NCBI GenBank assembly: GCA_041671125.1
Contig: JBAZCA010000003.1
Span: 128,689-192,688 of the forward strand
Length of the DNA stretch: 64,000 nt
Source of the DNA: Patescibacteria group bacterium
GTDB lineage: Bacteria > Patescibacteriota > Patescibacteriia > Patescibacteriales > JBAZCA01
Direction of reading: 5' to 3'
Shown piece after piece: positions 2-64,000 of the stretch; within the stretch, counting starts at the first letter, position 1, and each line of letters begins with the position of its first letter. A program made the translations under genes and the position numbers. The notes under the pieces are model-generated. The model did no database searches, was not told the origin of the DNA, and saw only the letters and a list, made by a program, of their open reading frames with translations.

Positions 2-535
2 AATTTTGTTGCCGGAGCTTTGGTAATGGGAATTTTCGCCATTGGCACCGCGCCAGGGCTTTTAGGCATCGGCGGCCTTACATCGGTTATTAAAGGAGCC
101 TTTGCAAAAAGATTTTTTAAGCTGGCCGGACTTTTAGTTATTATTTTTGCCTTTTTTAACTTTGCCAACGGCTGGAATCTAACCGGCCTTTCTATTGGTT
201 CTGCCGGCAACGCGAGAAAAGCTAATGTTTCTGCCAGCGACCCTAACGTCAGCCTGGAAAATGGCGTCCAGGTGGTAAGAATGGCCGAAGTCTCGGACGG
301 CTATGAACCGAACAAGTTTACGATAAAAAAAGGTGTTCCGGTTAAATGGGTGATTGACGCGCAAGCGCCCTATTTGTGCGCTTCAACTATCGTTTTGCCC
401 AAGCATGAAATAGTTAAGCACCTCGCGGCCGGCGAAAACATTATTGAATTTACTCCGGATGAAATCGGCGCCTTAAAATTTTCCTGCTCCATGGGTATGT
501 ATACCGGAGTGTTTAACGTCGTGGAAAATTTATGA
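2..535 (+). CDS. Membrane protein with C-terminal cupredoxin-like domain (5' end cut by window edge)
   Basis: Frame open back to nt 2. Hydrophobic N-part. C-terminal [16 protein letters not shown]...[10 protein letters not shown] pattern typical of cupredoxin-like metal-binding domains. 4-nt overlap with copA. Confidence 0.5.
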
Positions 536-2937
536 AAACCTTAAAACTGGACGTAAGCGGTATGCATTGCGCGTCTTGCGCCGCGATTATTGAGCGAAGC
601 GTGAAAAAAACCGTCGGCGTAAAAAACGCCAGCGTGAACCTGGCTTCGGAAAAAGCCACGGTTATTTTTGATGAAAAAATATTGGACTCCGAAGCGATAA
701 TTAAAGCGATAGAAAAGGCCGGGTACGGAGCAAAGGCTGGCGGAACAAGCGAGGAAGACGCAAAAAGGAAAGCCGCGGAACTAAAAAATCAATTTAATAA
801 ATTTTTAGTAAGCCTTACCCTTTCCTTGCCGATGTTTTATTTTATGCTCGCGGATTTTTTTCCCGCTCTTCCCGGCCGCGCCTCTCTTCCTTATCACGGC
901 CCTATATCTCTCTTACTTACTCTCCCAATCCAATTCATAATTGGCCTGAGTTTTTATAAAGGCATGTGGTCGGCCTTGCGGATGAAAACTTTTAACATGG
1001 ATTCTCTAATCGCCATCGGCACTTCCACCGCCTTTTTTTACAGCCTTGTAAACCTCCTGCTCTACGCGGTGAAAAACGGCTCAATCATCGGTCAAAACGG
1101 GGAGATGGTACCGGATTTGTACTTTGAAACCGCCGCTTTCCTTATCACTTTTGTTATCCTGGGTAAGTGGCTGGAGGCGCGGACTAAGGGCAGGACTTCT
1201 GACGCGATTAAAAAACTCATGAGTCTCAAGGGAAAAACCGCCCGGGTGATCCGCGAGGGCAAGACGATTGATTTGGCGATCGGCGCGGTAAAAAAAGGCG
1301 ACATTGTGATTGTCCGGCCGGGCGAAAAAATTCCGATTGATGGTAAAATTGTTAAGGGCTATTCTTCGGTTGATGAATCCATGCTCACCGGCGAATCCAT
1401 CCCGGTTGAAAAAAATATCGGCGCCAATGTCATCGGCGGGACAATCAATAAAACCGGTAGTTTTGAATTTAAGGTTACCAGGGTCGGAGAAGAAACAACC
1501 CTCTCGCAAATTATCCGGGTGGTTGAAGAAGCCCAAGGGTCAAAGGCGCCGATCCAGGGTTTTGCCGACCGGATTTCGGCTTATTTTGTCCCGGCGGTAA
1601 TTATCATAGCGATTATCACTTTTATTTCCTGGTACTTTTTTTTGAGCGCGACGCTCGTATTTTCTTTAATGGCTTTTACCGCCGTTATCGTTATCGCCTG
1701 TCCTTGCGCCCTAGGGCTCGCTACCCCGACCTCGCTCATGGTCGGGACTGGTAAGGGCGCCCAGTACGGTATCTTAATTAAAGGAGGAGAACCACTAGAA
1801 GTGGCGGGAAAAATTAATGCCATTGTCTTTGACAAAACCGGAACCATAACCAAAGGCAAACCCGAGGTAACTGATGTGGTTAAATTCCATCCCGCAGTAA
1901 GCGGAATCAAATTCCAAAATTTAGATATTATTCAAATCGCGGCATCTTTGGAAAAGAGCTCCGAACACCCATTGGCAGAAGCGATAATCAGAAAATCCAG
2001 AGAAATGGAAATCGAATTATTGCCGACAGAAAATTTTATGGCCATTCCTGGTCAAGGCGTAATCGGCGAGATAGCCGACAAAAAATATTATTTAGGCAAT
2101 CGGAAGTTAATAACTGAAACGGCCAGGCTGGCCGTAGCTAAAATTGAAGCTGAAATATTAAAACTGGAGGAGCAAGGAAAAACAGTTATGATTTTAGCCG
2201 ATGGAAAAGAGATTCTTGGCGCTATCGCCGTCGCTGATACGATCCGGGAAACTTCGCGTGAAGCAGTATCAAAATTAAAAGAGCTTGGCCTCGCCGTTTA
2301 TATGATTACCGGCGATAACAGCCGGACAGCTAAAGCCATAGCCTTGCAAGCGGGAATTGATGTTAATAACGTGTTTTCCGAAATTCTGCCGGAGGATAAA
2401 GCAAATATAATCAAAGAGATACAAAATAAAAATCGTCAATCGTCAATCGTCAACCCGCCTGCCGGCGAGGCAGGTCGTCAATCCTATGTGGCAATGGTCG
2501 GTGACGGAATAAACGACGCGCCGGCTTTAGCCAGAGCCGATTTGGGCATTGCCATGGGCGGCGGCGCGGACGTCGCCATGGAAACCGGCGGCATCGTAAT
2601 TATGCGGAATGATTTGCGGGACGTTGTCACGGCTTTTGAGCTCTCCCGCGAAACCATGGGCAAGATAAAACAGAATATGTTTTTCGCTTTGTTCTATAAC
2701 GTCATCGGCATTCCGGTTGCCGCTCGGGTATTTATGGGCTTTGGACTGGTATTAAAGCCGGAACTCGCCGGCCTGGCTATGGCTCTAAGCTCAATCTCAG
2801 TCGTCAGTAATTCCCTTCTCCTCCGCCTCTTCCGCCCGGGTAAGCGCAATTATTTATCAATGGCGGCGCCGATTATCATGGTAATATTATTTTCTTTTCT
2901 CTTTTACGAATTCGCCAAATTTAGTTCAAAAATGTAG
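532..2937 (+). CDS. copA: Copper-translocating P1B-type ATPase
   Basis: HMA domain [19 protein letters not shown] ([11 protein letters not shown]), [16 protein letters not shown]. 801 aa. Confidence 0.95.
2431..2485. repeat. In-frame short-word/palindrome element inside copA ((AATCGTC)x3 + 20-bp palindromic core)
   Basis: Core CCGCCTGCCGGCGAGGCAGG at 2455-2474 is the exact reverse complement of 19604-19623. Encodes [18 protein letters not shown] just before GDGINDAP. Confidence 0.8.
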
Positions 2938-4706: not shown

Positions 4707-4862
4707 AAGTGAAAAATTATCAATTATCAATGATCAATTTTCAATAAATTTTCAATTTATCAATAACGCGATTTTCAAATAGTCTGAAATAATGTTAAAT
4801 TTGAAAATTGTTTAATTGAAAATTCATTGATCATTGTAAATTGATAATTGAAAATTGATTTT

Positions 4863-7280: not shown

Positions 7281-7581
7281 CTTCTGGTTTAAAAAACTCC
7301 AGGCCGGGGAATCCGACCAGCCGCTTTTCTTAGTGATATAGAGGTAGAAGCGGTAGATTTTTACGACAAAATTGTAAAAAATAAACCTTAATCCCGGCCG
7401 GCCGGCTTTCTCGTAAAAATAAACAATGCCTTTAGAGGAGAAGTCTATTATTAATTTTCCCAGATTAAAAACCTGGATAATCAGCTCAACAAAAAAAATA
7501 ATGACGTTTTTCAGTAAGCGGCTCTTCCCTTTTATTTTTTGGGGTTTGTAGTATCTGATATTTTTACTGTTAATCCATCTG

Positions 7582-7654
7582 TGCGCCCACCAGGGGTCGA
7601 ACCTGGAACCTTGGACTTAAGAGGTCCCTGCTCTGCCAGTTGAGCTATGGGCGC
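7582..7654 (-). tRNA. tRNA-Lys (anticodon CUU)
   Basis: Hand-folded cloverleaf: acceptor GCGCCCA/TGGGCGC, anticodon loop cuCUUaa, T-loop GGTTCGA. Confidence 0.85.
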
Positions 7655-7907
7655 CCTACTTCATTAAAATTTCGTAGGGCGAGCTTATAAATGAATTAGT
7701 ATTCCTAAAAATGCTCGTCCGCCGAAGCTTTAGCGAAGGCGGAAGCTATTGGCGCTTTGAAGCGATTCCGCGGCTGTTTCGGTTTTACGCTTTTTTCGCG
7801 CCAGCGGCATCTATCATTTATAGCATAGCAGGTGGCTTTTTTCAACCACTCTCCGCGAAAACCGTTATTTAAACTTTAAAACATTTTTTATCGCCCGAGA
7901 GTTCCCG

Positions 7908-12625: not shown

Positions 12626-15445
12626 ATGCATCTTGAGCGATTGGAAATTCAGGGGTTTAAATCATTCGCCAGTAAAAACATTCTCATGTTTCCCGACCCC
12701 AAGGGCGGAAGCAAAGGCATTACCGCTATTGTCGGTCCTAACGGTTCGGGAAAATCCAACATAGCCGACGCGGTCAGATGGGCTTTAGGTGAGCAGAGCA
12801 TGAAGACGCTTCGGGGAAAGAAATCCGAAGACGTTATTTTTTCTGGATCAGATAAAAAAGGAAAACTCGGCATGGCTGAGGTTTCTCTCTATTTTAACAA
12901 TGAGAATTCCGCGCGATTCGGGAAACGCGCCAAAGTCGGAAAAAATACTTTGCCGGATGAGATAGAGGATGGCAACCTGGAGAATGCCGGGAGCGCCGAA
13001 ATGGCCGGAAAAAAACCGGAAGCGGAAGAAAGCGAAATTGAATATTCGCAAGTCGTCCTGACCCGGCGGCTTTTTCGCGACGGGGAAAGTGATTATCTCT
13101 TAAACGGTTTAAAAGCCCGGCTCTCGGATATCCAGATGTTTCTCGCCAAAGCCAAGTTCGGCCAGCGCACCTACAGCGTTATCGGGCAGGGAACGGTAGA
13201 AGGTTTTTTAAACACCAGTCTGGCTGAGCGAAAAGAATTTTTTGATGAGGCAACCGGCGTAAAACAGTTCCAAATTAAAAGGGATGACTCTTTAAATAAG
13301 CTTCGGGCAAGTTTTGAAAATTTAAACCAGGCGAGCCTGCTTCTTGATGAAATTTCCCCGCGGCTCAGGACACTGACCCGGCAGGTGGAAAAACTGAAAA
13401 AAAGGGATGAAATTGAAGCGGAATTAAAAGAGCTTCAGCAAAAATATTACGGCCGGTTATGGCAGGAAATAAACGGAAAATTCAGCGAATACAACAGGCA
13501 ATTTCTTGAACTGGAAAAGGTAAAAAAAGAAAAAGAGAAAAAAATGGAGCTCCTTAAAAAGGAGCATATCCGGCTGGAAGCTGAAGGGGAGCGGGTAGGA
13601 GAAGCAGACTTTTCGCAAAAAGAATTATCCGATTTGCAGAGTGAAAAAGAAAAAATAGTCAGCGAACTCGCCCGGCTGGAGACGCGGGCGCAGATGAAAC
13701 TTGAGACTGAGGGTAAGTATGATCTTTCCTGGATGAAAGGGAAAATTGAGGAATTAAGCCGGGAATTGGTGAAAATTGAAGAAGAAAAAATAAAGACCGC
13801 GATAGAAGGGGAAGGATATTTTAATGAAAGAAACGGCTTGCAGGACGATTTAGACGGATTGAACGAAGAAATAAGGGAATTGGAAAAAAAATATCGGCAG
13901 GCTGGGGCCGAGTCGCTCGCCGGAGGCGAAAAAGCGATTTTAAAAAAAATTGAAATCCTCCTCGCGAAGATGGGGCGGATGGAATATGGTGAAGATTTAG
14001 CCGGATTAAAAAAAATCGTGGCCGAAATAAGGAACGAACTGGAGAAAATTATTTTCCGGAAGGAAGACGATGACGGCGGAATAAAAACGATTCAGGATGA
14101 ACTGGAAATGAAAATAAAATTCAGGGAAGAGTTGGCGGAGAAGACCGGCCGGATTTCCCTTAAAGCGGCAATGGCAAAAGAGAGGGAAAAGATGATTGTT
14201 GAAAAAGAAAAAGAAGCGCGAAACGAATTAGCGGGTTTTGAAAAAAAGATCCGGGAAGGCGGGAATGAAAAAAATAAAAGCGCCGGAGCTGAAGACGCAA
14301 AAAAATTAAAGGAAAAATTAACGGCGATAAACGCGAGAATCCTGGAAATTAAAGGAAAAATTGAAGCTATGTCCCGGGCTGGCGAAGAAGAGCGGAAGCA
14401 TCTTTTTAAAATTCAGCGCGCGATCCAGGAAGCACAAAATGAACTTAACGCTCTCGGCAACCGGCTTGGCGAGCTTCGGGTTTCGGCGGCTCGTTTTGAA
14501 ACCCGGCTGGAGGATTTAGAAAAAGAAATCAGGGAAAATTTTGTTGACATGAAAGGCGTAAAAAGCTGCCCGGCTTCGGATGGGGATTTTAACGCGCCGG
14601 TTGCGGAAGAGAAAATCAGCGTTTTAAAAAGGCAGATGGATTTAATCGGCGGACTGGATCTGGAAATAGAAAAAGAGTATTTATCAACCAAAGAGCGACA
14701 TGATTTTTTAAGCGAGCAGGCCGACGATCTGACCCGGGCGATTGCGTCGCTCGAAAAAATTATCCGCGAATTGGACGCCAATATTAAGGAGCGCTTTGAT
14801 CGGGAATTTAAAATAATCAGCGCCAAGTTTGAAGAGTATTTTAAAATTTTATTTTCCGGTGGCAGCGCGAAAATCGTTAAAATTATGGAATCGGCCCTGG
14901 ACGAAGCTCTGGAGGCCGGAAAAGGCGCGTCCGGGGAAGAAACGGCCGGAAAAAACAAGGGCTTTGACGCTGATCCGGACACCAAAGGGAAAAAAGCTGT
15001 TCCAGAAAAAGCAAAAAATCCGGTTAGCGAGCGATCGGCGGGACTGGATAAAATAAAGTTTTTACAGAAGCGCAACGCGACCGGCCTGGCCGGAATTGAA
15101 ATCCAAGCCACTCCGCCAGGGAAAAAAATTCGCTCCATTTCCATGCTTTCGGGAGGGGAAAGGGCTTTAACCGCTATCGCGCTAATCTCGGCCATAATCA
15201 GCGCCAATCCGTCGCCGTTCGTCGTTTTGGACGAAGTGGACGCGGCTTTAGATGAATCCAACTCAGAGCGCCTCGCGAAAATTTTAGATGACCTTTCCCA
15301 TAAAACTCAATTTATAGTTATTACTCACAATCGGGCTTCCATGCGCCGGGCTAATATATTGTATGGCGTAACCATGCAGGACGATGGCGCCTCAAAACTT
15401 CTTTCGGTAAAGCTGGAAGAGGCGCCGCAGGTGATTAAAAAGTAA
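12626..15445 (+). CDS. smc: SMC-family chromosome partition ATPase, short form without recognisable hinge
   Basis: Walker A GPNGSGKSN, FKSF start, signature LSGGE, Walker B VLDEVDAALD. About 650 aa of Glu/Lys coiled coil lies between the two head halves. Confidence 0.85.
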   Translation: MHLERLEIQGFKSFASKNILMFPDPKGGSKGITAIVGPNGSGKSNIADAVRWALGEQSMKTLRGKKSEDVIFSGSDKKGKLGMAEVSLYFNNENSARFGKRAKVGKNTLPDEIEDGNLENAGSAEMAGKKPEAEESEIEYSQVVLTRRLFRDGESDYLLNGLKARLSDIQMFLAKAKFGQRTYSVIGQGTVEGFLNTSLAERKEFFDEATGVKQFQIKRDDSLNKLRASFENLNQASLLLDEISPRLRTLTRQVEKLKKRDEIEAELKELQQKYYGRLWQEINGKFSEYNRQFLELEKVKKEKEKKMELLKKEHIRLEAEGERVGEADFSQKELSDLQSEKEKIVSELARLETRAQMKLETEGKYDLSWMKGKIEELSRELVKIEEEKIKTAIEGEGYFNERNGLQDDLDGLNEEIRELEKKYRQAGAESLAGGEKAILKKIEILLAKMGRMEYGEDLAGLKKIVAEIRNELEKIIFRKEDDDGGIKTIQDELEMKIKFREELAEKTGRISLKAAMAKEREKMIVEKEKEARNELAGFEKKIREGGNEKNKSAGAEDAKKLKEKLTAINARILEIKGKIEAMSRAGEEERKHLFKIQRAIQEAQNELNALGNRLGELRVSAARFETRLEDLEKEIRENFVDMKGVKSCPASDGDFNAPVAEEKISVLKRQMDLIGGLDLEIEKEYLSTKERHDFLSEQADDLTRAIASLEKIIRELDANIKERFDREFKIISAKFEEYFKILFSGGSAKIVKIMESALDEALEAGKGASGEETAGKNKGFDADPDTKGKKAVPEKAKNPVSERSAGLDKIKFLQKRNATGLAGIEIQATPPGKKIRSISMLSGGERALTAIALISAIISANPSPFVVLDEVDAALDESNSERLAKILDDLSHKTQFIVITHNRASMRRANILYGVTMQDDGASKLLSVKLEEAPQVIKK

Positions 15446-18854: not shown

Positions 18855-19517
18855 ATGGTAAATTTTAAAGCGACAAAAATTTTAGCCGACTCCGAAGTCC
18901 TGGCCGAAGAATTTAAAGCGGCGCGCCGTAACCGGGGTTTAGGCGTTCCCGAGGCGGCCCGGAAATCGCAGATTGGGATTAAATACATTAAAGCCATTGA
19001 AGCCGGCCGATTAGAACTTCTTCCGGCCGGAATTTACCGGAAGAATTTTTTAAGGGAATACGCGGATTTTTTAGGGTTTGACTCAAAGGAGCTTTTAAAA
19101 AGTTTTCCCGAAGCGCAGGCTGATAGGGAAGTTAACAGCCCCTTTTCCTGCCGCGTCGCCCGAACCCGGACCATCATCATCCCAAAAATAATGAAAGGAA
19201 TCGGCGTTGCCGCCGTAGCCGTAACCTGCCTTTTTTATTTGCAGACCCGTTTTTCTATGGTGGTTTCGCCTCCGAGCCTTTCTATCGCTAATCCGTCCGA
19301 AGACATGAAGCTGGATGCCAGGGAAATTAATATAATCGGCATGACCGATCCGGAGACGGAAGTAACTATTAATAATAACCTGGTTTTAACCGGCGCTAAC
19401 GGCGATTTTTCCAAAATGATCAATCTGCGTGAAGGAATAAATGTTATTACCATAATCGCTAAAAATAAATTCGGCCCGGAAAAAAAGATTGTTAAGCAGA
19501 TTCTCGTAAGCGATTGA
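18855..19517 (+). CDS. RodZ-like HTH membrane protein
   Basis: N-terminal XRE-type HTH (AARKSQIGIKYIKAIEAG), central TM helix, beta-rich C-terminal domain. Confidence 0.55.
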   Translation: MVNFKATKILADSEVLAEEFKAARRNRGLGVPEAARKSQIGIKYIKAIEAGRLELLPAGIYRKNFLREYADFLGFDSKELLKSFPEAQADREVNSPFSCRVARTRTIIIPKIMKGIGVAAVAVTCLFYLQTRFSMVVSPPSLSIANPSEDMKLDAREINIIGMTDPETEVTINNNLVLTGANGDFSKMINLREGINVITIIAKNKFGPEKKIVKQILVSD

Positions 19518-19589
19518 TTTTAATTATATGGCGTGGTAGGCTGGGCAAAGATTGTTTATAGTTAATAATTATTATAGCTAATTGTAAAA

Positions 19590-19645
19590 TTGATCATTGA
19601 TTACCTGCCTCGCCGGCAGGCGGATTAATCATTGGTTATTGATTG
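19590..19645. repeat. Short-word/palindrome element in the recA leader (same 20-bp core as in copA)
   Basis: CCTGCCTCGCCGGCAGGCGG at 19604-19623, flanked by ATTGATCA/ATTGATTGAC words. Confidence 0.8.
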
Positions 19646-19650
19646 ACTAT

Positions 19651-20763
19651 ATGGCTGAAGAAAAAAAAGCGGTTAAAACTAGGGAGGAAACGGACACGTC
19701 CAGTAAAGCGGCCGGAGAGGGAAAATCCCCTGTTGTCAAAGTTGCAGTAGACAAGGAAAAGGATGAAAAAATGAAAGCGGCTTTGACCGCTATTGACCAA
19801 ATAAAAGAGCGGTTCGGCGAAGGCTCAATCATGCGGTTCGGCGAGGTGAAAGCGGCGCAGGTTGAAGCCGTTTCAACCGGCTGCCTTTCTTTGGATATCG
19901 CTCTAGGGGTGGGCGGAGTGCCGCGCGGCCGGGTGGTTGAAATTTTCGGGCCCGAAGCCTCAGGAAAAACTACCCTGGCTCAGCATATCGTCGCTGAAGT
20001 GCAAAAACTCGGCGGCATCGCGGCGTTTGTTGACGCCGAACACGCCTTGGATCCGGATTACGCGGTAAAAATCGGTATTAATATCAAAGATCTTTTAATC
20101 TCCCAGCCCGATACGGGCGAGCAGGCGCTGGAAATCGTGGAAACCCTGGTTCGCTCCAACGCGGTTGACGTTATTGTAATTGACTCGGTTGCGGCTTTAG
20201 TCCCCCAAAAAGAAATTGAAGGCGATATCGGCGATTCGCACATGGGGCTCCAGGCTCGGCTCATGAGCCAGGCTTTGCGCAAACTCACCGGCGTTATTTC
20301 TAAAAGCAAAACCATTGTAATTTTTATCAACCAGATCCGTTTAAAAATCGGCGTCTTTTTTGGCAATCCGGAAACTACGACCGGCGGTATGGCTTTGAAA
20401 TTTTATTCTTCGGTCAGGATAGAAGTTCGGCGCGCGGCTCAGATTAAGCAGGGCGATCGGATTATTGGCAGCCGGGTAAAGTGCAAGGTGGTGAAAAACA
20501 AAGTGGCGGCGCCTTTCCGGACGACTGAATTTGACATCATGTATAACGAAGGAATTTCCTTGTCCGGCGATTTAATTGATACCGGAGTGCTGCACAAAGT
20601 TATTAACAAATCAGGCAATTCGTATAGTTACGGCGACATCAAACTGGGCGTCGGCCGGGAAAACGCCAAGCGGACTCTTAAGGAAGATAAAAAGCTCATG
20701 AAAGAACTGCGCAATAAAATTTGGACCGCGGTTAAAGAGGAAGAGGCGAAGGAATCAAGTTAG
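19651..20763 (+). CDS. recA: Recombinase RecA with about 35-aa Lys/Glu-rich N-terminal extension
   Basis: GPEASGKTT Walker [12 protein letters not shown]1/L2 loop regions. ATG at 19651 preferred, because the upstream part of the ORF crosses the repeat element. Confidence 0.95.
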
Positions 20764-21687: not shown

Positions 21688-21781
21688 AAATTAAATTCCA
21701 AATTCCAAATTCCAAATTCCATCCTGAGCGCTCGGGATTAGAATTCGGATATTTTGGAATTTGGTGCTTGTGATCTGGAAT

Positions 21782-36454: not shown

Positions 36455-36592
36455 CAGACTACCCGAGAATTGTCATTCTGACCCCGCATTTGCGGGGGAA
36501 GAATCTACATATGTAAATTTTGTCAAGGTTGCAGATCCTTCGCTTCACTTCGTTTCGCTCAGGATGACAAAATGGGAGTTCTCGGACAGTCT
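36455..36592. repeat. GTCATYCTGA-family palindromic element with outer arms
   Basis: Inner palindrome at 36471-36569. Outer arms CAGACTACCCGAGAA / TTCTCGGACAGTCT. Overlaps the annotated ORF start at 36572. Confidence 0.75.
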
Positions 36593-36604
36593 AAACACAT
36601 TAAC

Positions 36605-38095
36605 ATGATGATGTTATTGACTGTGTTATTTTTCTTTTTTTTCACAGCCATTGCCTGGCGCCGTTTGGATTGGGCAATGATGATTATTGTTTTTGCCCTG
36701 CCTTCTTATCTTATTCGCTTTAATATCATGGGTTTGCCTTTTACCTTGCTTGAAGGCATGATTCTTATTGCTTTTACGGTTTGGTTTTTAAAGAGTTGGC
36801 CGACGGTTTTTTTGGGACTGAGGGCAAAAATTAGGGGAATGAAAGAACTCGGCCGGGAAAATTATCCTTTTGGTCTGGAAATAATTTTACTGCTCATAGT
36901 CGCGTTTATAGCGGCGGGCGTGGCCGGTTTTTCAAGGGAATCCCTCGGGATTTTTAAAGCCTATTTTTTTGAGCCAGCCTTATTTTTTATCCTGCTTTTT
37001 AATACTCTTGGCCGGGAAGCTCTGGAGGACATAAAAAGCCGTTGGCCGGAAAAAATATTATGGCCGCTCGCGATATCCGGGCTGGCGGTTTCGCTTCTCG
37101 CGGTTTACCAGAAGTTTACCGGCAACCTGATTGATAATCCGCTTTGGCAGGCCGAAGGGACGAGGCGGGTGGTTTCCTTTTTTGGCTATCCAAACGCGGT
37201 GGGATTGTATCTCGGGCCATTGATTTTGTTATTCACGGGATGGCTGGCAAAGGAATTTAGCGAAGTTAAACAAGGCAGTAATAGAATTTTCAATTTTCAT
37301 TTTTCAATTTTCAATTCTAAAATTTTTAAAATATTTTTTATTGCGTTTGTCATTGCGATATCGTTATTGGCTATTTATTTTGCTAAATCCAGGGGGGCAA
37401 TAATCGGCGTGGCCGCCGGAATCTTTGTTTTCGGTCTTCTGGCCGGAAAAAAAGTAAGATTAATAACGCTTGGTCTCGGCCTTATATTGGCCGCTGGAAT
37501 CTATTTTTATCCGCCGGCCAAAGAAATCGCGGCTGAAAAGATCGCCCTTAGAGATTTATCCGGCGAAATAAGAAAACAGCAGTGGCGAGAAACTTGGGCG
37601 ATGCTTAGCGATGGAAGATTAATATCCGGCGCCGGGCTTTCCGGCTATCAGGCAGCCGTAGCGCCCTATCATCAGGAAGGCATATTTTTTAATAAATTAA
37701 AAAATCCGGATTTTCACCGAAAAACCGTTTTTGACGCCGCATACCGGAAGCTGGTCTGGCAACCGGTGGAAATTTACATGTATCCACACAATATATTTTT
37801 AAATTTTTGGTCCGAGCTGGGGCTGGCGGGTATGCTTTTATTTATCTTTATTATCGGGAAATATTTTGTCGTCGTGATTTTGAATTTAAAACGTAAATCG
37901 GACGGGTTAAAATATAAATATTTGAATATCGGGCTGATCGGGGCCATGGCCGTTATCGTCGTCCATGGATTAGTTGACGTCCCGTATTTTAAAAATGACC
38001 TCTCGGTCATGTTCTGGATTTTTATTTTTATGGTGAGCTTAATTAATTTAAAACATAAGTCCGCTTTATCCGGGGCGGGCCAGGAAAATGTATGA
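36605..38095 (+). CDS. O-antigen ligase/polymerase-like (Wzy_C) membrane protein
   Basis: At least ten TM helices with a large loop containing H-rich YPHN. ATG at 36605 lies outside the palindromic element. Confidence 0.65.
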   Translation: MMMLLTVLFFFFFTAIAWRRLDWAMMIIVFALPSYLIRFNIMGLPFTLLEGMILIAFTVWFLKSWPTVFLGLRAKIRGMKELGRENYPFGLEIILLLIVAFIAAGVAGFSRESLGIFKAYFFEPALFFILLFNTLGREALEDIKSRWPEKILWPLAISGLAVSLLAVYQKFTGNLIDNPLWQAEGTRRVVSFFGYPNAVGLYLGPLILLFTGWLAKEFSEVKQGSNRIFNFHFSIFNSKIFKIFFIAFVIAISLLAIYFAKSRGAIIGVAAGIFVFGLLAGKKVRLITLGLGLILAAGIYFYPPAKEIAAEKIALRDLSGEIRKQQWRETWAMLSDGRLISGAGLSGYQAAVAPYHQEGIFFNKLKNPDFHRKTVFDAAYRKLVWQPVEIYMYPHNIFLNFWSELGLAGMLLFIFIIGKYFVVVILNLKRKSDGLKYKYLNIGLIGAMAVIVVHGLVDVPYFKNDLSVMFWIFIFMVSLINLKHKSALSGAGQENV

Positions 38096-38412
38096 ACAAT
38101 TTAAAATTGATTTCCATCGGGTTTTTAAATTCATTCGGCGTCCTCGTCTACATCGCTTTGGTGAGTTTTGCTTTAAGGAATGGGGAAAGGATTTTCGGGC
38201 AAATGGACAGCTTTCTCGCGCCAGTTGCCTTCCTCATGCTTTTTGTTTTTTCCGCCCTGACAACGGGACTATTGGTTCTCGGACGACCGATCTATTATTA
38301 TCTTAACGGCAAAAAAGCCGAAGCATTTAAGCTCATGCTTTTTACCTTGCTCTGGCTTTTTGCCATGCTGGTCGCGGTTTTCGGGAGCCTTATTATTATA
38401 AGGCTGGCATGA
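38092..38412 (+). CDS. Small integral membrane protein
   Basis: Three TM helices. Start and stop overlap both neighbouring genes. Confidence 0.5.
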   Translation: MNNLKLISIGFLNSFGVLVYIALVSFALRNGERIFGQMDSFLAPVAFLMLFVFSALTTGLLVLGRPIYYYLNGKKAEAFKLMLFTLLWLFAMLVAVFGSLIIIRLA

Positions 38413-39125
38413 AAGTAATTCTTCAAAAATATATCGCCCAATCAGGCCTCGCTTCAAGGCGGGCGGCTGAAATTTTGATCCGGCAGGGAAAAGTTTTCGT
38501 AAACGGCAAAAAAGCGCAAATCGGCATGGCGGTTGACATCGGTGACGCGCCTGAGGTTAAAGTTGGCGGGAAAAAATTAAGGTTGCCAGAAGAGAAAATA
38601 TATACTAAATTGAATAAGCCATCGGGCTATACCTCAACCGCTAGGAAGTTTAAGGGGGAAAAAAACGTTTTTGACCTCATAAAACTAAAAGAGCGGCTGT
38701 TCATAGTCGGACGGCTGGATAAAGACAGCCGGGGGCTAATCCTTTTAACTAATGACGGCGAGCTCGCCAACAAACTTACCCATCCGCGCTACGAAAAGGA
38801 AAAAGAATACATAGCAGAAATTTCAAATTCCAAATTCCAAATTCCAAAAAGAGAAAAAGAAGTAGTTTTTCAATTTACAGAAGGAATTGATATCGGGGAG
38901 GGGGATGGAATAGTAAAAGCTAAGAAAGTAAAATATCTGGGTGATAATAAATTCAACTTAGTTTTAACCGAAGGGAAGAAGCGGCAGATTCGGCGGATGT
39001 TTAAGAAGCTCGGGCTGGAAGTAAGAGATCTTGTCCGGGTAAGAATCGGCAAGCTGGAACTCGGGAATTTAAAAGAGGGGGAATGGAAAAAACTGACTGA
39101 GGACGAAATAAAAAAACTGAAGTAA
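38409..39125 (+). CDS. RsuA/RluB-family pseudouridine synthase
   Basis: N-terminal S4 domain (SRRAAEILI..G.V.VNG). Catalytic GRLDKDSRGLILLTNDG. Confidence 0.85.
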   Translation: MKVILQKYIAQSGLASRRAAEILIRQGKVFVNGKKAQIGMAVDIGDAPEVKVGGKKLRLPEEKIYTKLNKPSGYTSTARKFKGEKNVFDLIKLKERLFIVGRLDKDSRGLILLTNDGELANKLTHPRYEKEKEYIAEISNSKFQIPKREKEVVFQFTEGIDIGEGDGIVKAKKVKYLGDNKFNLVLTEGKKRQIRRMFKKLGLEVRDLVRVRIGKLELGNLKEGEWKKLTEDEIKKLK

Positions 39126-59334: not shown

Positions 59335-60477
<1,143 letters not shown>

Positions 60478-60926: not shown

Positions 60927-61364
60927 ATGTCCAACAGACATCTTGCTCGCACCATCGCCATGCAAACTTTATTCCTTTGGGATTTCAAAGGAGGGGATGT
61001 TGATGTTGAAAAAGTCCTGAGGGAAAATTTTAATAATTTCGCGCCGGAGTTTGACGATAACGGATTCGCCCTAAACCTTGTTAAAGGGGTTATGTCAAAC
61101 CTTGAAGAGATTGACCGGAAAATTATAAAGTACGCGACTGACTGGCCGCTTTCCCAGATTACGACGGTTGACCGGAATATCCTCCGTATCGGCGTTTTTG
61201 AACTGCTTCTTGACAAGGACATACCGGAGAAGGTGGCGATTAACGAAGCCATAGAAATTGCCAAAAATTTCGGCGGTGAAGCTTCGGGACGGTTTGTTAA
61301 CGGGGTTTTGGGCGCGATCTATAATGATTTATTTAAGAATAAGAAAATAGTAAACAGTAAATAG
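60927..61364 (+). CDS. nusB: Transcription antitermination factor NusB
   Basis: R..AR..A.Q.LF..D pattern, W......[21 protein letters not shown]. Confidence 0.9.
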
Positions 61365-61422
61365 TAAACAGATGCTAGCTCAGAGTCTACTATTTACTAT
61401 TTGCTATTGTCTGTTTACTGGG

Positions 61423-63321: not shown

Positions 63322-63529
63322 AGTCCCCCGGAAAATTCCATAACTCATAACCCATAACTCATAACCCGATCCGAAAGATGCAAAGCGAGTTATAAGTTAT
63401 AGGCTAGAAGTTATGGATAGCTATGATCAAACCGATGAACTTTGACAATTGAATATTAGAGAACCAAAAATAGAAAATTTTCGTCAATTATATATCACAC
63501 TTCGGAGCTTTAGGCGGCTCCGAGTCAAA

Positions 63530-64000
63530 AGTGTGGGAAAATCTCGTAAGAGTATATGGTGGATGCCTTGACGCAAAAAGACGATGAAGGACGCAGCAGC
63601 CTGCGATAAGCTTCGGTGAGGTGGCAAGCAACCTTTGACCCGAGGATTTCCGAATGGGGAAACCCTTCCCGTTGAAGACGGGAAATCCGTATTTTGAATA
63701 CATAGATTTACGGAGGAGTACCCGGGGAACTGAAACATCTAAGTACCCGGAGGAAAAGAAACGAATAAATGTTAGTTAATTAGTGATTATTCTAGTCACT
63801 AATTAACTAATAAGATTCCCTGAGTAGTGGCGAGCGAAAGGGGAGAAGTCTAAACTTTTATAACCGCGTTTTTCTTTGTACTTGTACAAAGGGGAACAGA
63901 AGGCGCCAGAGCCATATGTTATAGAGGTGTTGCAAGATTGGTGCTTCTTCTTTTCTGGAAAAAAGAAGGTGAAGTCATAAAAGGCAGTTGTTAGCTTAAG
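63530..64000 (+). rRNA. rrl: 23S rRNA, 5' domain I (continues beyond the window). The 5' boundary is approximate.
   Basis: GGTGGATGCCTTG, GATGAAGGACG, CTGCGATAAGC, TTTCCGAATGGGGAAACC, GGGGAACTGAAACATCTAAGTACC, AGTAGTGGCGAGCGAAAGGGGA. Confidence 0.95.

Follow-up and report, generated by a model that had tools for sequence, protein, structure and literature searches.

A dispersed 21-nucleotide hairpin module and its probable insertion into copA and the recA leader of a Patescibacteria genome

We analyzed a stretch of 64,000 nucleotides (referred to below as 'the window') from a Patescibacteria group bacterium (assembly GCA_041671125.1, contig JBAZCA010000003.1, positions 128,689 to 192,688), in which an initial annotation had pointed to one palindromic 20-bp core at two sites: in frame inside copA, which encodes a Cu+ P-type ATPase, and in the leader of recA. 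Both sites are probably secondarily inserted members of a dispersed family of 21-nt units. The unit acts as an insertion module that is coupled to arrays of tandem heptamers, and it is widespread and apparently undescribed. Rfam places no family over either window site or over the module in 20 other loci, and a search of the literature found neither the 21-mer sequence nor its peptides, with related keyword searches likewise empty.

The core, CCGCCTGCCGGCGAGGCAGG, lies at 2455-2474 on the plus strand and recurs as its exact reverse complement at 19604-19623, just as the initial annotation had it, and the reiterated flanking words it described are present as period-7 words on both sides of both cores. 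The window contains no further match to the core at up to three mismatches, and 100 dinucleotide shuffles contained 0 matches. The two sites are made up of the following features.

532..2937, plus strand: copA, Cu+ P-type ATPase of 801 aa, the host gene (open reading frame, ORF; PDB match 3J09, E = 6e-191)
2431..2453, plus strand: heptamer array (AATCGTC)x3.3, abutting the module on its left (Tandem Repeats Finder, TRF: period 7, 100% matches)
2454..2474, plus strand: 21-nt module CCCGCCTGCCGGCGAGGCAGG, exact match to the consensus
2475..2484, plus strand: right-hand continuation of the heptamer array (TCGTC AATCC), from reading the sequence
19589..19603, no strand assigned: heptamers ATTGATC ATTGATT A, left of the recA-leader copy, from the sequence
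19604..19623, minus strand: second module copy, in the recA leader (20/21 match; the 21st position is T, not C)
19624..19648, no strand assigned: heptamers ATTAATC ATTGGTT ATTGATT GAC.., right of the recA-leader copy, from the sequence
19651..20763, plus strand: recA, the downstream gene, with its ATG 28 nt after the module

The copA copy is read as (N)PPAGEAG, corresponding to CopA residues 642-648. It has (AATCGTC)x3.3 on its left and TCGTCAATCC on its right, and taking the 21-mer out of this site leaves an unbroken (AATCGTC)x4.7 array. At the recA site the right-hand heptamers keep their 7-nt phase with the left-hand ones across the 21-nt block.

The base preceding the 20-mer is C in 121 of 125 copies, and we therefore define the unit as the 21-mer CCCGCCTGCCGGCGAGGCAGG, which is three heptamers in length. 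The flanking base just 5' of this unit is a purine in 112 of the 125 copies; the first base on its 3' side is variable. As single-stranded DNA (ssDNA) the module consists of a 4-nt tail (CCCG), a 6-bp stem (CCTGCC/GGCAGG) and a 5-nt loop (GGCGA), a fold with a predicted energy of -6.8 kcal/mol that takes up 93% of the ensemble. On direct reading, all six frames of the module are free of stop codons. Variants include CCTGCCTGCCGGCAAGGCAGG, CCTGTCTGCCGACGAGGCAGG and ...GGCGTGGCAGG, and the loci that we fetched (numbered with an L below) hold additional copies, about 11 of them exact and 16 with 1-4 differences.

A scan that used one genome per species and yielded at least 120 stretches placed the exact 20-mer, among the matches listed, in more than 120 stretches from about 100 assemblies and at least 10 phylum-level groups; chance alone would give about one match (2 x 5.96e11 / 4^20). 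The initial annotation had allowed that the core might occur at the two window sites only, and that reservation falls because the 20-mer family is large. The carriers among the matches listed include many Patescibacteria classes, Omnitrophota, Bacteroidota and Acidobacteriota (contigs of 0.2-2.5 Mb), together with Elusimicrobia, uncultured Gammaproteobacteria, Planctomycetia, Armatimonadota, Nitrospirae, Eremiobacterota and one metagenome-assembled genome (MAG) of Bathyarchaeota; none of the carriers listed is a cyanobacterium. Three carriers are cultured Bacteroidota: Aureibaculum sp. 2210JD6-5, Agriterribacter humi YJ03 and Namhaeicola litoreus CCUG 61485. For at least Bacteroidota, Acidobacteriota and Patescibacteria, carriage is made secure by isolates and by contigs of megabase size. 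We rejected carriage by phages, since a single viral contig bears the 21-mer, and carriage by plasmids, whose matches are weak GC-rich noise only.

These results bear on the idea that each GC-rich hairpin was formed in place, independently of the rest, through template switching or slippage, with convergence, chance or an assembly artefact behind the identity of the two copies. GC hairpins with other sequences do stand beside arrays (L121, L125, L128 and window 1889-1908), as that idea would predict, but it is barely credible for a 21-mer that is identical in about 100 assemblies (among the matches listed) from varied groups and methods, isolates and long-read chromosomes included, that has no match in shuffles, and whose insertions lie in frame in conserved genes.

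Alignment of CopA orthologues agrees with the proposal that the copA copy is a lineage-specific insertion in the loop before GDGINDAP. It is absent from orthologues at 77-81% identity: these closest relatives, and most others, read KKLQxxGKKVAMVGDG where the window protein has a 30-residue version with a longer loop, and none of the CopA orthologues examined has the AATCGTC array of 2431..2453. Of the extra residues, 14 are explained by three additional heptamers (21 nt) together with the module (21 nt), which preserve the reading frame. The in-frame location claimed in the initial annotation thus stands, and its 54-nt unit does not, the window protein being 16 aa longer here than the closest orthologues and 17 aa longer than the CopA of A. 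fulgidus (3J09), whose alignment shows a 17-residue gap at the insert. The insert falls between a P-domain helix (residues 620-640) and the strand YVAMVG (652-657). Mapping it onto structure, as had been suggested, gave a modelled disordered loop: in an AlphaFold2 model of CopA (40 homologues, mean predicted local distance difference test score, pLDDT, of 74.9) residues 638-649 score below 50 and the flanking blocks 82-88, with the 620-640 helix extending into the array-encoded residues before the 652-657 strand begins. The low pLDDT and the placement together suggest that the insert protrudes from the surface of the P domain as a disordered excursion, seven residues ahead of GDGINDAP. The three closest relatives likewise lack the module in their recA leaders (102, 29 and 117 nt; RecA 89-94% identical). 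Judged from these comparisons of sequence, both window copies appear to be recent acquisitions, absent from the closest relatives.

Three independent sets of filled and empty sites display an exact 21-nt insertion with no target-site duplication. In a Bacteroidetes MAG (L011), an intact tRNA-Arg gene has GTGGATA joined directly to GAGCAGTGG, and a duplicated 5' half of the same gene has the 21-mer between these two segments. The second set comes from an Acidobacteriota contig (L106) with a repeat assigned by Rfam to Acido-Lenti-1 (RF01687); its copies read either GGCACGCAG followed at once by CGCAGCGG or the same two segments separated by the 21-mer. The third set is the gene for a DUF4256 protein, which in A. 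humi is filled (GAT AA-CCTGCCTCGCCGGCAGGCGGG-A AAA ACG), as it is in a related metagenomic gene, L137 (GAT AA-CCTGCCTGCCGGCAAGGCAGG-G AAA ACA), and in most homologues is empty (GAT AAA AAA AC, encoding ..YD KK TGEY). None of the three sites (tRNA fragment, Acido-Lenti-1 loop, DUF4256) has an array or flanking homology. The junctions show that the module inserted as exactly 21 nt, directly 3' of a purine, in either orientation and without duplication.

Two further ideas about the target were rejected. The first, a 7-bp target-site duplication through which cycles of insertion and excision would build the arrays, does not hold in general, given the three empty sites without duplication; perfect 7-bp direct repeats around GC hairpins in the window, at 3 versus 0.8 in shuffles, are not enriched. 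The second, preferential insertion into the loops of host hairpins, describes the copies in the tRNA D-loop and in Acido-Lenti-1 correctly, and flank-to-flank pairing is no higher overall than in controls.

The junctions also speak to the reading implicit in the initial annotation, that the whole ~54 nt of heptamers and core forms one mobile unit. Both window cores are embedded in heptamers, and array and core are jointly absent from relatives. The heptamers nevertheless are not borne out as part of the element, since their words differ between the two sites (AATCGTC versus ATTGATY) and among all other copies; filled and empty pairs differ by 21 nt alone, and about 20 period-7 arrays in the window have no core. 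A relative, L129 (RecA 94% identical), already has the recA array unit once, with one ATTGATCGTTGG at the corresponding place in the leader (ATTGATY once) and neither array nor module. A composite mobile unit is accordingly very improbable.

The DUF4256 site was followed in a homologue search that is free of exact-match bias and in which counts refer to homologues with a parsable loop. Sixty-eight homologues are empty, with a 22-residue loop, and 15 are filled, with seven additional residues at the same position. Nine of the 15 carry the reverse consensus module (NLPRRQAG, or the decayed NLPRGQAG, NLPVRQAG and NLPGRQAG) and six a forward variant (NLPAGKAG and derivatives). When the insert columns are masked, the nearest neighbours of filled proteins are mostly empty; the filled A. 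humi protein, for example, is 90% identical to the empty P0247, which is nearer to it than any other filled lineage. Two orientations at one nucleotide position amid empty relatives imply that insertion recurred at a hot spot, or that precise losses occurred too. The decayed peptides imply that a resident copy is subject to ordinary sequence evolution and not to homogenisation.

Long 'ORFs' around copies in GC-rich Acidobacteria are spurious, with frames that differ between 'orthologues', and we therefore limited the ORF statistics to loci below 50% GC and to stop-free spans of at least 150 codons. By this measure 42 of 93 copies (~45%) lie within ORFs. Their frames are unevenly used, with PASPAGG in 20, PPAGEAG in 11, LPRRQAG in 5, RLPARQ in 3, PACRRGR in 2 and CLAGRR in 1, where an even spread would give 7 each; the skew looks like a post-insertion filter that favours flexible, uncharged peptides. 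Because the module is 21 nt long and free of stops in all six frames, insertion into an ORF adds seven residues. Pfam confirmed fifteen host genes, among them UvrA, UvrB, topoisomerase I (TopA), DnaX, a RumA-like methyltransferase, a second CopA, a metallo-beta-lactamase (MBL) hydrolase, TsaD and a YchF-like GTPase, with a SpoU methylase and DUF4256 as hosts in cultured isolates. The copies that survive in ORFs occupy tolerant loops and mostly use two frames that give flexible P/A/S/G peptides.

One host gene has its insert at a surprisingly sensitive spot for a tolerated insertion: in the RumA-like methyltransferase of L020, PASPAGG sits within CQHFG-PASPAGG-HCGGC, between cysteines of an apparent Fe-S cluster motif.

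The loop of CopA that holds the window copy has received other insertions elsewhere. Other Patescibacteria CopAs have heptamer arrays at the identical P-domain loop followed by other short GC hairpins, including (AAATTGG)x4 with CCCGTCCGAGACGGG, AATTACC/AATGACC with CTCGCCAAAGGCGAG and (GGAATTT)x3 with CCGCGCAAAGCGTGG; the array-bearing proteins are not mutual nearest neighbours, which implies largely independent events. A second site within the window's own copA is similar.

1882..1915, plus strand: second hairpin-in-heptamer site in copA, AAATTCC-ATCCCGCAGTAAGCGGAATC-AAATTCC, encoding HPAVSGIKF (sequence; AlphaFold2 pLDDT below 50 at residues 455-458)

In the closest relative the orthologous loop reads AAATTCC AAATCCC AAATTCC-CTGCCTCGCCGGCCGGCAGG-C AAATTCC, in which the hairpin is a 19/21 variant of the 21-nt module accompanied by 3+1 AAATTCC units, and more distant CopAs have neither hairpin nor heptamers there. 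The same landing pad with another hairpin and another copy number reads as turnover at a single site.

A second family of short GC hairpins is found beside heptamer arrays in the CopA loops of L121, L125, L127 and L128, in L135 (~523-570) and at window 1889-1908. The stems of this family differ by paired changes (CCCGTC-CGA-GACGGG, CTCGCC-AAA-GGCGAG, CCGCGC-AAA-GCGTGG, CCCGCC-GCA-GGCGGG, CCCGC-AGTAA-GCGG), and several begin with CCCGCC, as the 21-mer does.

Heptamer arrays are a general feature of the window. TRF reports 22 period-7 and eight period-14 rows among 65, and four of the period-7 arrays are perfect, whereas shuffles give none. The array words vary by place (AATCGTC, AAATTCC, AATTTTC, AATCGGC, AATTGGC, AACCCTA, AAAYAGT and CATAACT), and copies of the 21-mer elsewhere are flanked by heptamers specific to their own loci, such as GGTTGAG, AATTGGA, GGACTTT, GTCGGAG, AATAAGT, GGTGATT and AAGGAAA. 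A strict lag-7 array touches 5.6% of copies versus 0.36% of random positions in the same loci, with lags of 5, 6, 8 and 9 at about zero, and the identity of the 7 nt to the left and right of the module peaks at shifts of 0, 7 and 14. In metagenomic sequences the module itself is found in tandem at period 21 (L132, positions 1-100, where the contig starts with at least 4.8 head-to-tail copies) or with one or two heptamers between its copies, at periods 28 and 35 (L135 and L136). The arrays represent amplified, pre-existing local sequence and are also able to amplify the module in tandem.

We considered whether the recA copy identifies the hairpin as a selected cis-element, either an operator or other protein-binding site or an mRNA-stabilising hairpin in the leader, with the copA copy incidental. 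The copy does lie between promoter-like hexamers and the recA start, and at some orthologous sites (L003/L063 and L078/L103) the exact core is kept with diverged flanks. The hexamers, two weak sigma-70-like matches at 19542-19569 and 19562-19590, are not above chance in the leader, and the exact-match search biases the core conservation seen in those pairs. The stretch 19400-19750 has no terminator-like site; the hairpin is followed by TCGTCAATCC in copA and by CGGATTAATC at recA, and in the absence of a T run after it at either window site we rejected an intrinsic terminator. A selected role is quite improbable, given also that the module is absent from the leaders of the closest relatives, that the same 21-mer occurs in both orientations within unrelated ORFs and repeats of many phyla, and that the DUF4256 copies decay by ordinary substitutions.

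The RecA protein (window 19651-19770) has a ~40-residue Lys/Glu-rich N-terminal extension that is kept in relatives (P0121: 94% identity, 100% query coverage). The NCBI gene call on the same contig puts the recA start further downstream, giving a protein of 330 aa.

Several known classes of small repeat resemble the module. The likeness to Rickettsia palindromic elements (RPEs) suggested in the initial annotation extends to a palindromic insertion that colonises intact ORFs, and the 21-mer is not an RPE by taxon or sequence tag and is far shorter than RPE-1. As with RPEs, insertion is in frame, the ORF stays intact and a peptide is added to surface loops (CopA, UvrA, UvrB, TopA, DnaX, TsaD, SpoU methylase and DUF4256). 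RPEs belong to Rickettsia, whereas the window protein has a Patescibacteria annotation and the 21-mer is carried by Patescibacteria, Omnitrophota, Bacteroidota, Acidobacteriota and others. The RPE-1 type comprises longer palindromic insertions, of ~100-150 bp; RPE-4 and RPE-6 are small and belong to the CGTC-type repetitive extragenic palindromes (REPs), with a CGTC tag, 8-9 bp stems and a CCA tail, none of which the 21-mer has (its end is CCCG and its stem 6 bp). The likeness to RPEs is one of behaviour, not membership.

REPs, in the GTAG and CGTC super-families, are palindromic dispersed repeats of 20-40 bp, a minority of which are intragenic and favour genes of replication and repair, with uvrA, uvrB and genes for polymerases among them (Di Nocera et al. 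2013, PMC3733652). The 21-mer shares with them a palindromic dispersed form, an unpaired end motif joined to a stem-loop, presence in several phyla, nesting in other palindromes and intragenic copies in repair and replication genes (its hosts include uvrA, uvrB, topA and dnaX). It differs in having neither a GTAG nor a CGTC tag (the unpaired end is CCCG), a 6-bp stem and no CCA tail. REPs are mostly head-to-head dimers, whereas the 21-mer comes as solitary copies or as direct tandems: of 131 copies, none forms an inverted pair with another inside 100 nt, and the nearest two such pairs are ~140 and ~210 nt apart (L037 and L075). REPs are also mainly extragenic, unlike the 21-mer, with nearly half of its copies in AT-rich genomes inside ORFs, and one identical 21-mer sequence spans many phyla. 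A cognate REP-associated tyrosine transposase (RAYT), a Y1 HUH enzyme whose gene is flanked by the repeats, goes with REPs; in the 8-kb flanks of 120 loci with the 21-mer no such gene was seen beside the copies and no protein family recurs.

The small dispersed repeats (SDRs) of Nostocaceae are described, in papers that cite Elhai et al. 2008, as dispersed repeats of ~20 nt (21-27 nt) that are thought to be mobile and are reported only from Nostocaceae, with SDR5 inserting between nucleotides 3 and 4 of HIP1. On that description they share with the 21-mer a size of ~20 nt, precise insertion at a defined position and tandem repeats in varying copy number; the host differs. SDRs are also associated with heptameric repeats. 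Miniature inverted-repeat transposable elements (MITEs) are likewise non-autonomous, gene-less dispersed repeats with dyad symmetry. They derive from insertion sequences and make target-site duplications, and they measure 70-300 bp with terminal inverted repeats of 15-30 bp, whereas the 21-mer has 21 nt and left no duplication at the three empty sites. We rejected a MITE identity, which would call for the terminal inverted repeats of an insertion sequence together with a target-site duplication. The 21-mer behaves like a REP, a small RPE or an SDR, yet lacks the defining tags of REPs and RPEs and the characteristics of MITEs.

We interpret the module as a gene-less, GC-rich 21-nt hairpin that would spread by precise insertion, a REP- or SDR-like 'nano-element'. 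It is probably recognised as an ssDNA hairpin by a nuclease or transposase whose gene lies at another place in the genome, and any mobilising enzyme must act in trans because the module has no gene and no linked gene. The module recurrently strikes the same sites and is strongly tied to locus-specific heptamer arrays, which may be landing pads exposing ssDNA that attracts it or, alternatively, products of slippage that the hairpin promotes. The simplest reading of its cross-phylum identity would be that the whole 21 nt serves as the recognition site of a conserved enzyme, in which case only exact copies go on moving. The window copies may be neutral passengers gained after the split from the closest sampled relatives, the one in copA lengthening a disordered surface loop of the P domain and the one at recA putting a hairpin into the leader. 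The trans-acting single-strand hairpin mechanism, taken alone, is a tentative proposal that we rate somewhat below even. A mechanism like that of IS200/IS605 elements or RAYTs would fit the hairpin and the lack of duplication, and misfits the weak target preference and the single untagged unit.

All-against-all clustering of ORFs, confined to the 8-kb flanks, found no recurring protein family, the maximum being 5 of 120 loci. Candidates for a linked enzyme were rejected as suggestive at best: DUF559 occurs beside copies in one locus, and GIY-YIG in three loci, in two of them adjacent to copies.

The loci concerned have the following arrangements. In Namhaeicola litoreus CCUG 61485 (L097, 1650-2650) an ORF for a putative DUF559 endonuclease of 122 aa, the sole one of its kind among the 120 loci, has ~60-nt repeats containing the 21-mer on both sides. 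In L011 (7455-7875) a small GIY-YIG ORF (7516..7812) lies between the duplicated 5' half of tRNA-Arg(CCG) and the intact tRNA, an arrangement that resembles a tiny element integrated at a tRNA gene, with the 21-mer in the D-loop of the fragment. Another GIY-YIG ORF, in L008, lies between a tRNA, tandem variant modules and one exact copy.

The main rival to movement by an enzyme is spread by recombination, through templated patch repair or gene conversion via arrays or microhomology and with no dedicated enzyme involved. It would account for the missing linked or recurrent enzyme gene, for the strong tie to repetitive arrays with tandem and interleaved amplification inside them, and for the different hairpin modules at the same array site in sister genomes. 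We regard it as unlikely, because the heptamers vary by locus, so that donor and recipient share no homology, and because the exact 21-nt junctions occur at three sites without array or flanking homology.

Several points also weigh against movement of the 21-mer by an enzyme acting in trans. No mobilising enzyme was found, in a search that did not extend to the window's other genes. The target preference of the module is for a purine only; IS200/IS605-type single-strand transposition uses targets of 4-5 nt, a far stronger preference. Known REP/RAYT pairs do not explain the identity of the 21-mer across phyla, because they are lineage-specific, and some of the phylum labels may reflect mis-binning, because most carriers are MAGs. 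Metagenomes gave no alternative allele when searched for presence/absence polymorphism at the copA site. Repeated precise loss, instead of repeated gain, would equally explain the scattered pattern at DUF4256. Finally, the sequences would allow either of array and module to be the cause of the other.

Some of the window's arrays form structures of their own. Three hairpins consist of a heptamer array, a centre and an inverted array (z-scores -3.9 to -4.1): 21693-21780, (AAATTCC)x4 / TCCTGAGCGCTCGGGA / GGAATTT-like, between ssb and rpsR; 61345-61419, (AAAYAGT)x4 / 16 nt / (TACTATT)x4, at the 3' end of nusB; and 63339-63414, (CATAACY)x4 / 22 nt / (AGTTATA)x4, immediately upstream of 23S rRNA. 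The relative L123 has a similar TAAACAG/CTGTTTA pair. Arrays that lie in frame in ORFs encode peptides with a 7-residue period, as in a QueA-like protein (ORF 59335..60477, arrays 59639-59669 and 60211-60244: KSAIGNRQSAI and KIENWQLKIGNF), a pseudouridine-synthase-like protein (ORF 38409..39125, array 38818-38848: EISNSKFQIPK) and a membrane protein (ORF 36572..38095, array 37285-37316: RIFNFHFSIFNS); in other Patescibacteria, TopA, CopA and an MBL hydrolase contain comparable peptides (KLEIGNWKLEIG). In L123 a different GC palindrome, TCCCGCCAGCCCGCCCGCCCGCGGGCGGGA, lies at 13715-13745 in the spacer before nifS, and in the window AT-rich heptamer arrays occupy the adjoining spacer of this cluster (nifS-nifU), at 4715-4859. 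The 23S rRNA gene begins at 63536 (window 63536-64000). Rfam detects no 16S rRNA over the preceding 63 kb, and the rRNA genes seem unlinked.

If the module is mobile, its 21 nt set a lower bound on the DNA needed for mobility and point to a broadly distributed enzyme that recognises a specific DNA hairpin. Its insertions account for part of the puzzling short insertions and 7-residue-periodic peptides in conserved Patescibacteria proteins, and PASPAGG, PPAGEAG and LPRRQAG provide a signature by which such insertions can be annotated. The recurrence in DNA-repair and replication genes echoes the unexplained bias of intragenic REPs (PMC3733652), and the three cultured carriers (Agriterribacter humi, Aureibaculum sp. 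and Namhaeicola litoreus) open the question to experiment. It is possible, although we would not yet call it probable, that, of the mobile DNA elements seen so far, the 21-mer is the smallest to keep one conserved sequence from one bacterial phylum to another, and that a hairpin-recognising enzyme common to many bacteria moves it in trans; together with heptamer slippage arrays it may then constitute a general, undescribed route by which essential proteins (UvrA, UvrB, TopA, DnaX, TsaD and CopA) of Patescibacteria, Bacteroidota and other environmental bacteria acquire new loops.

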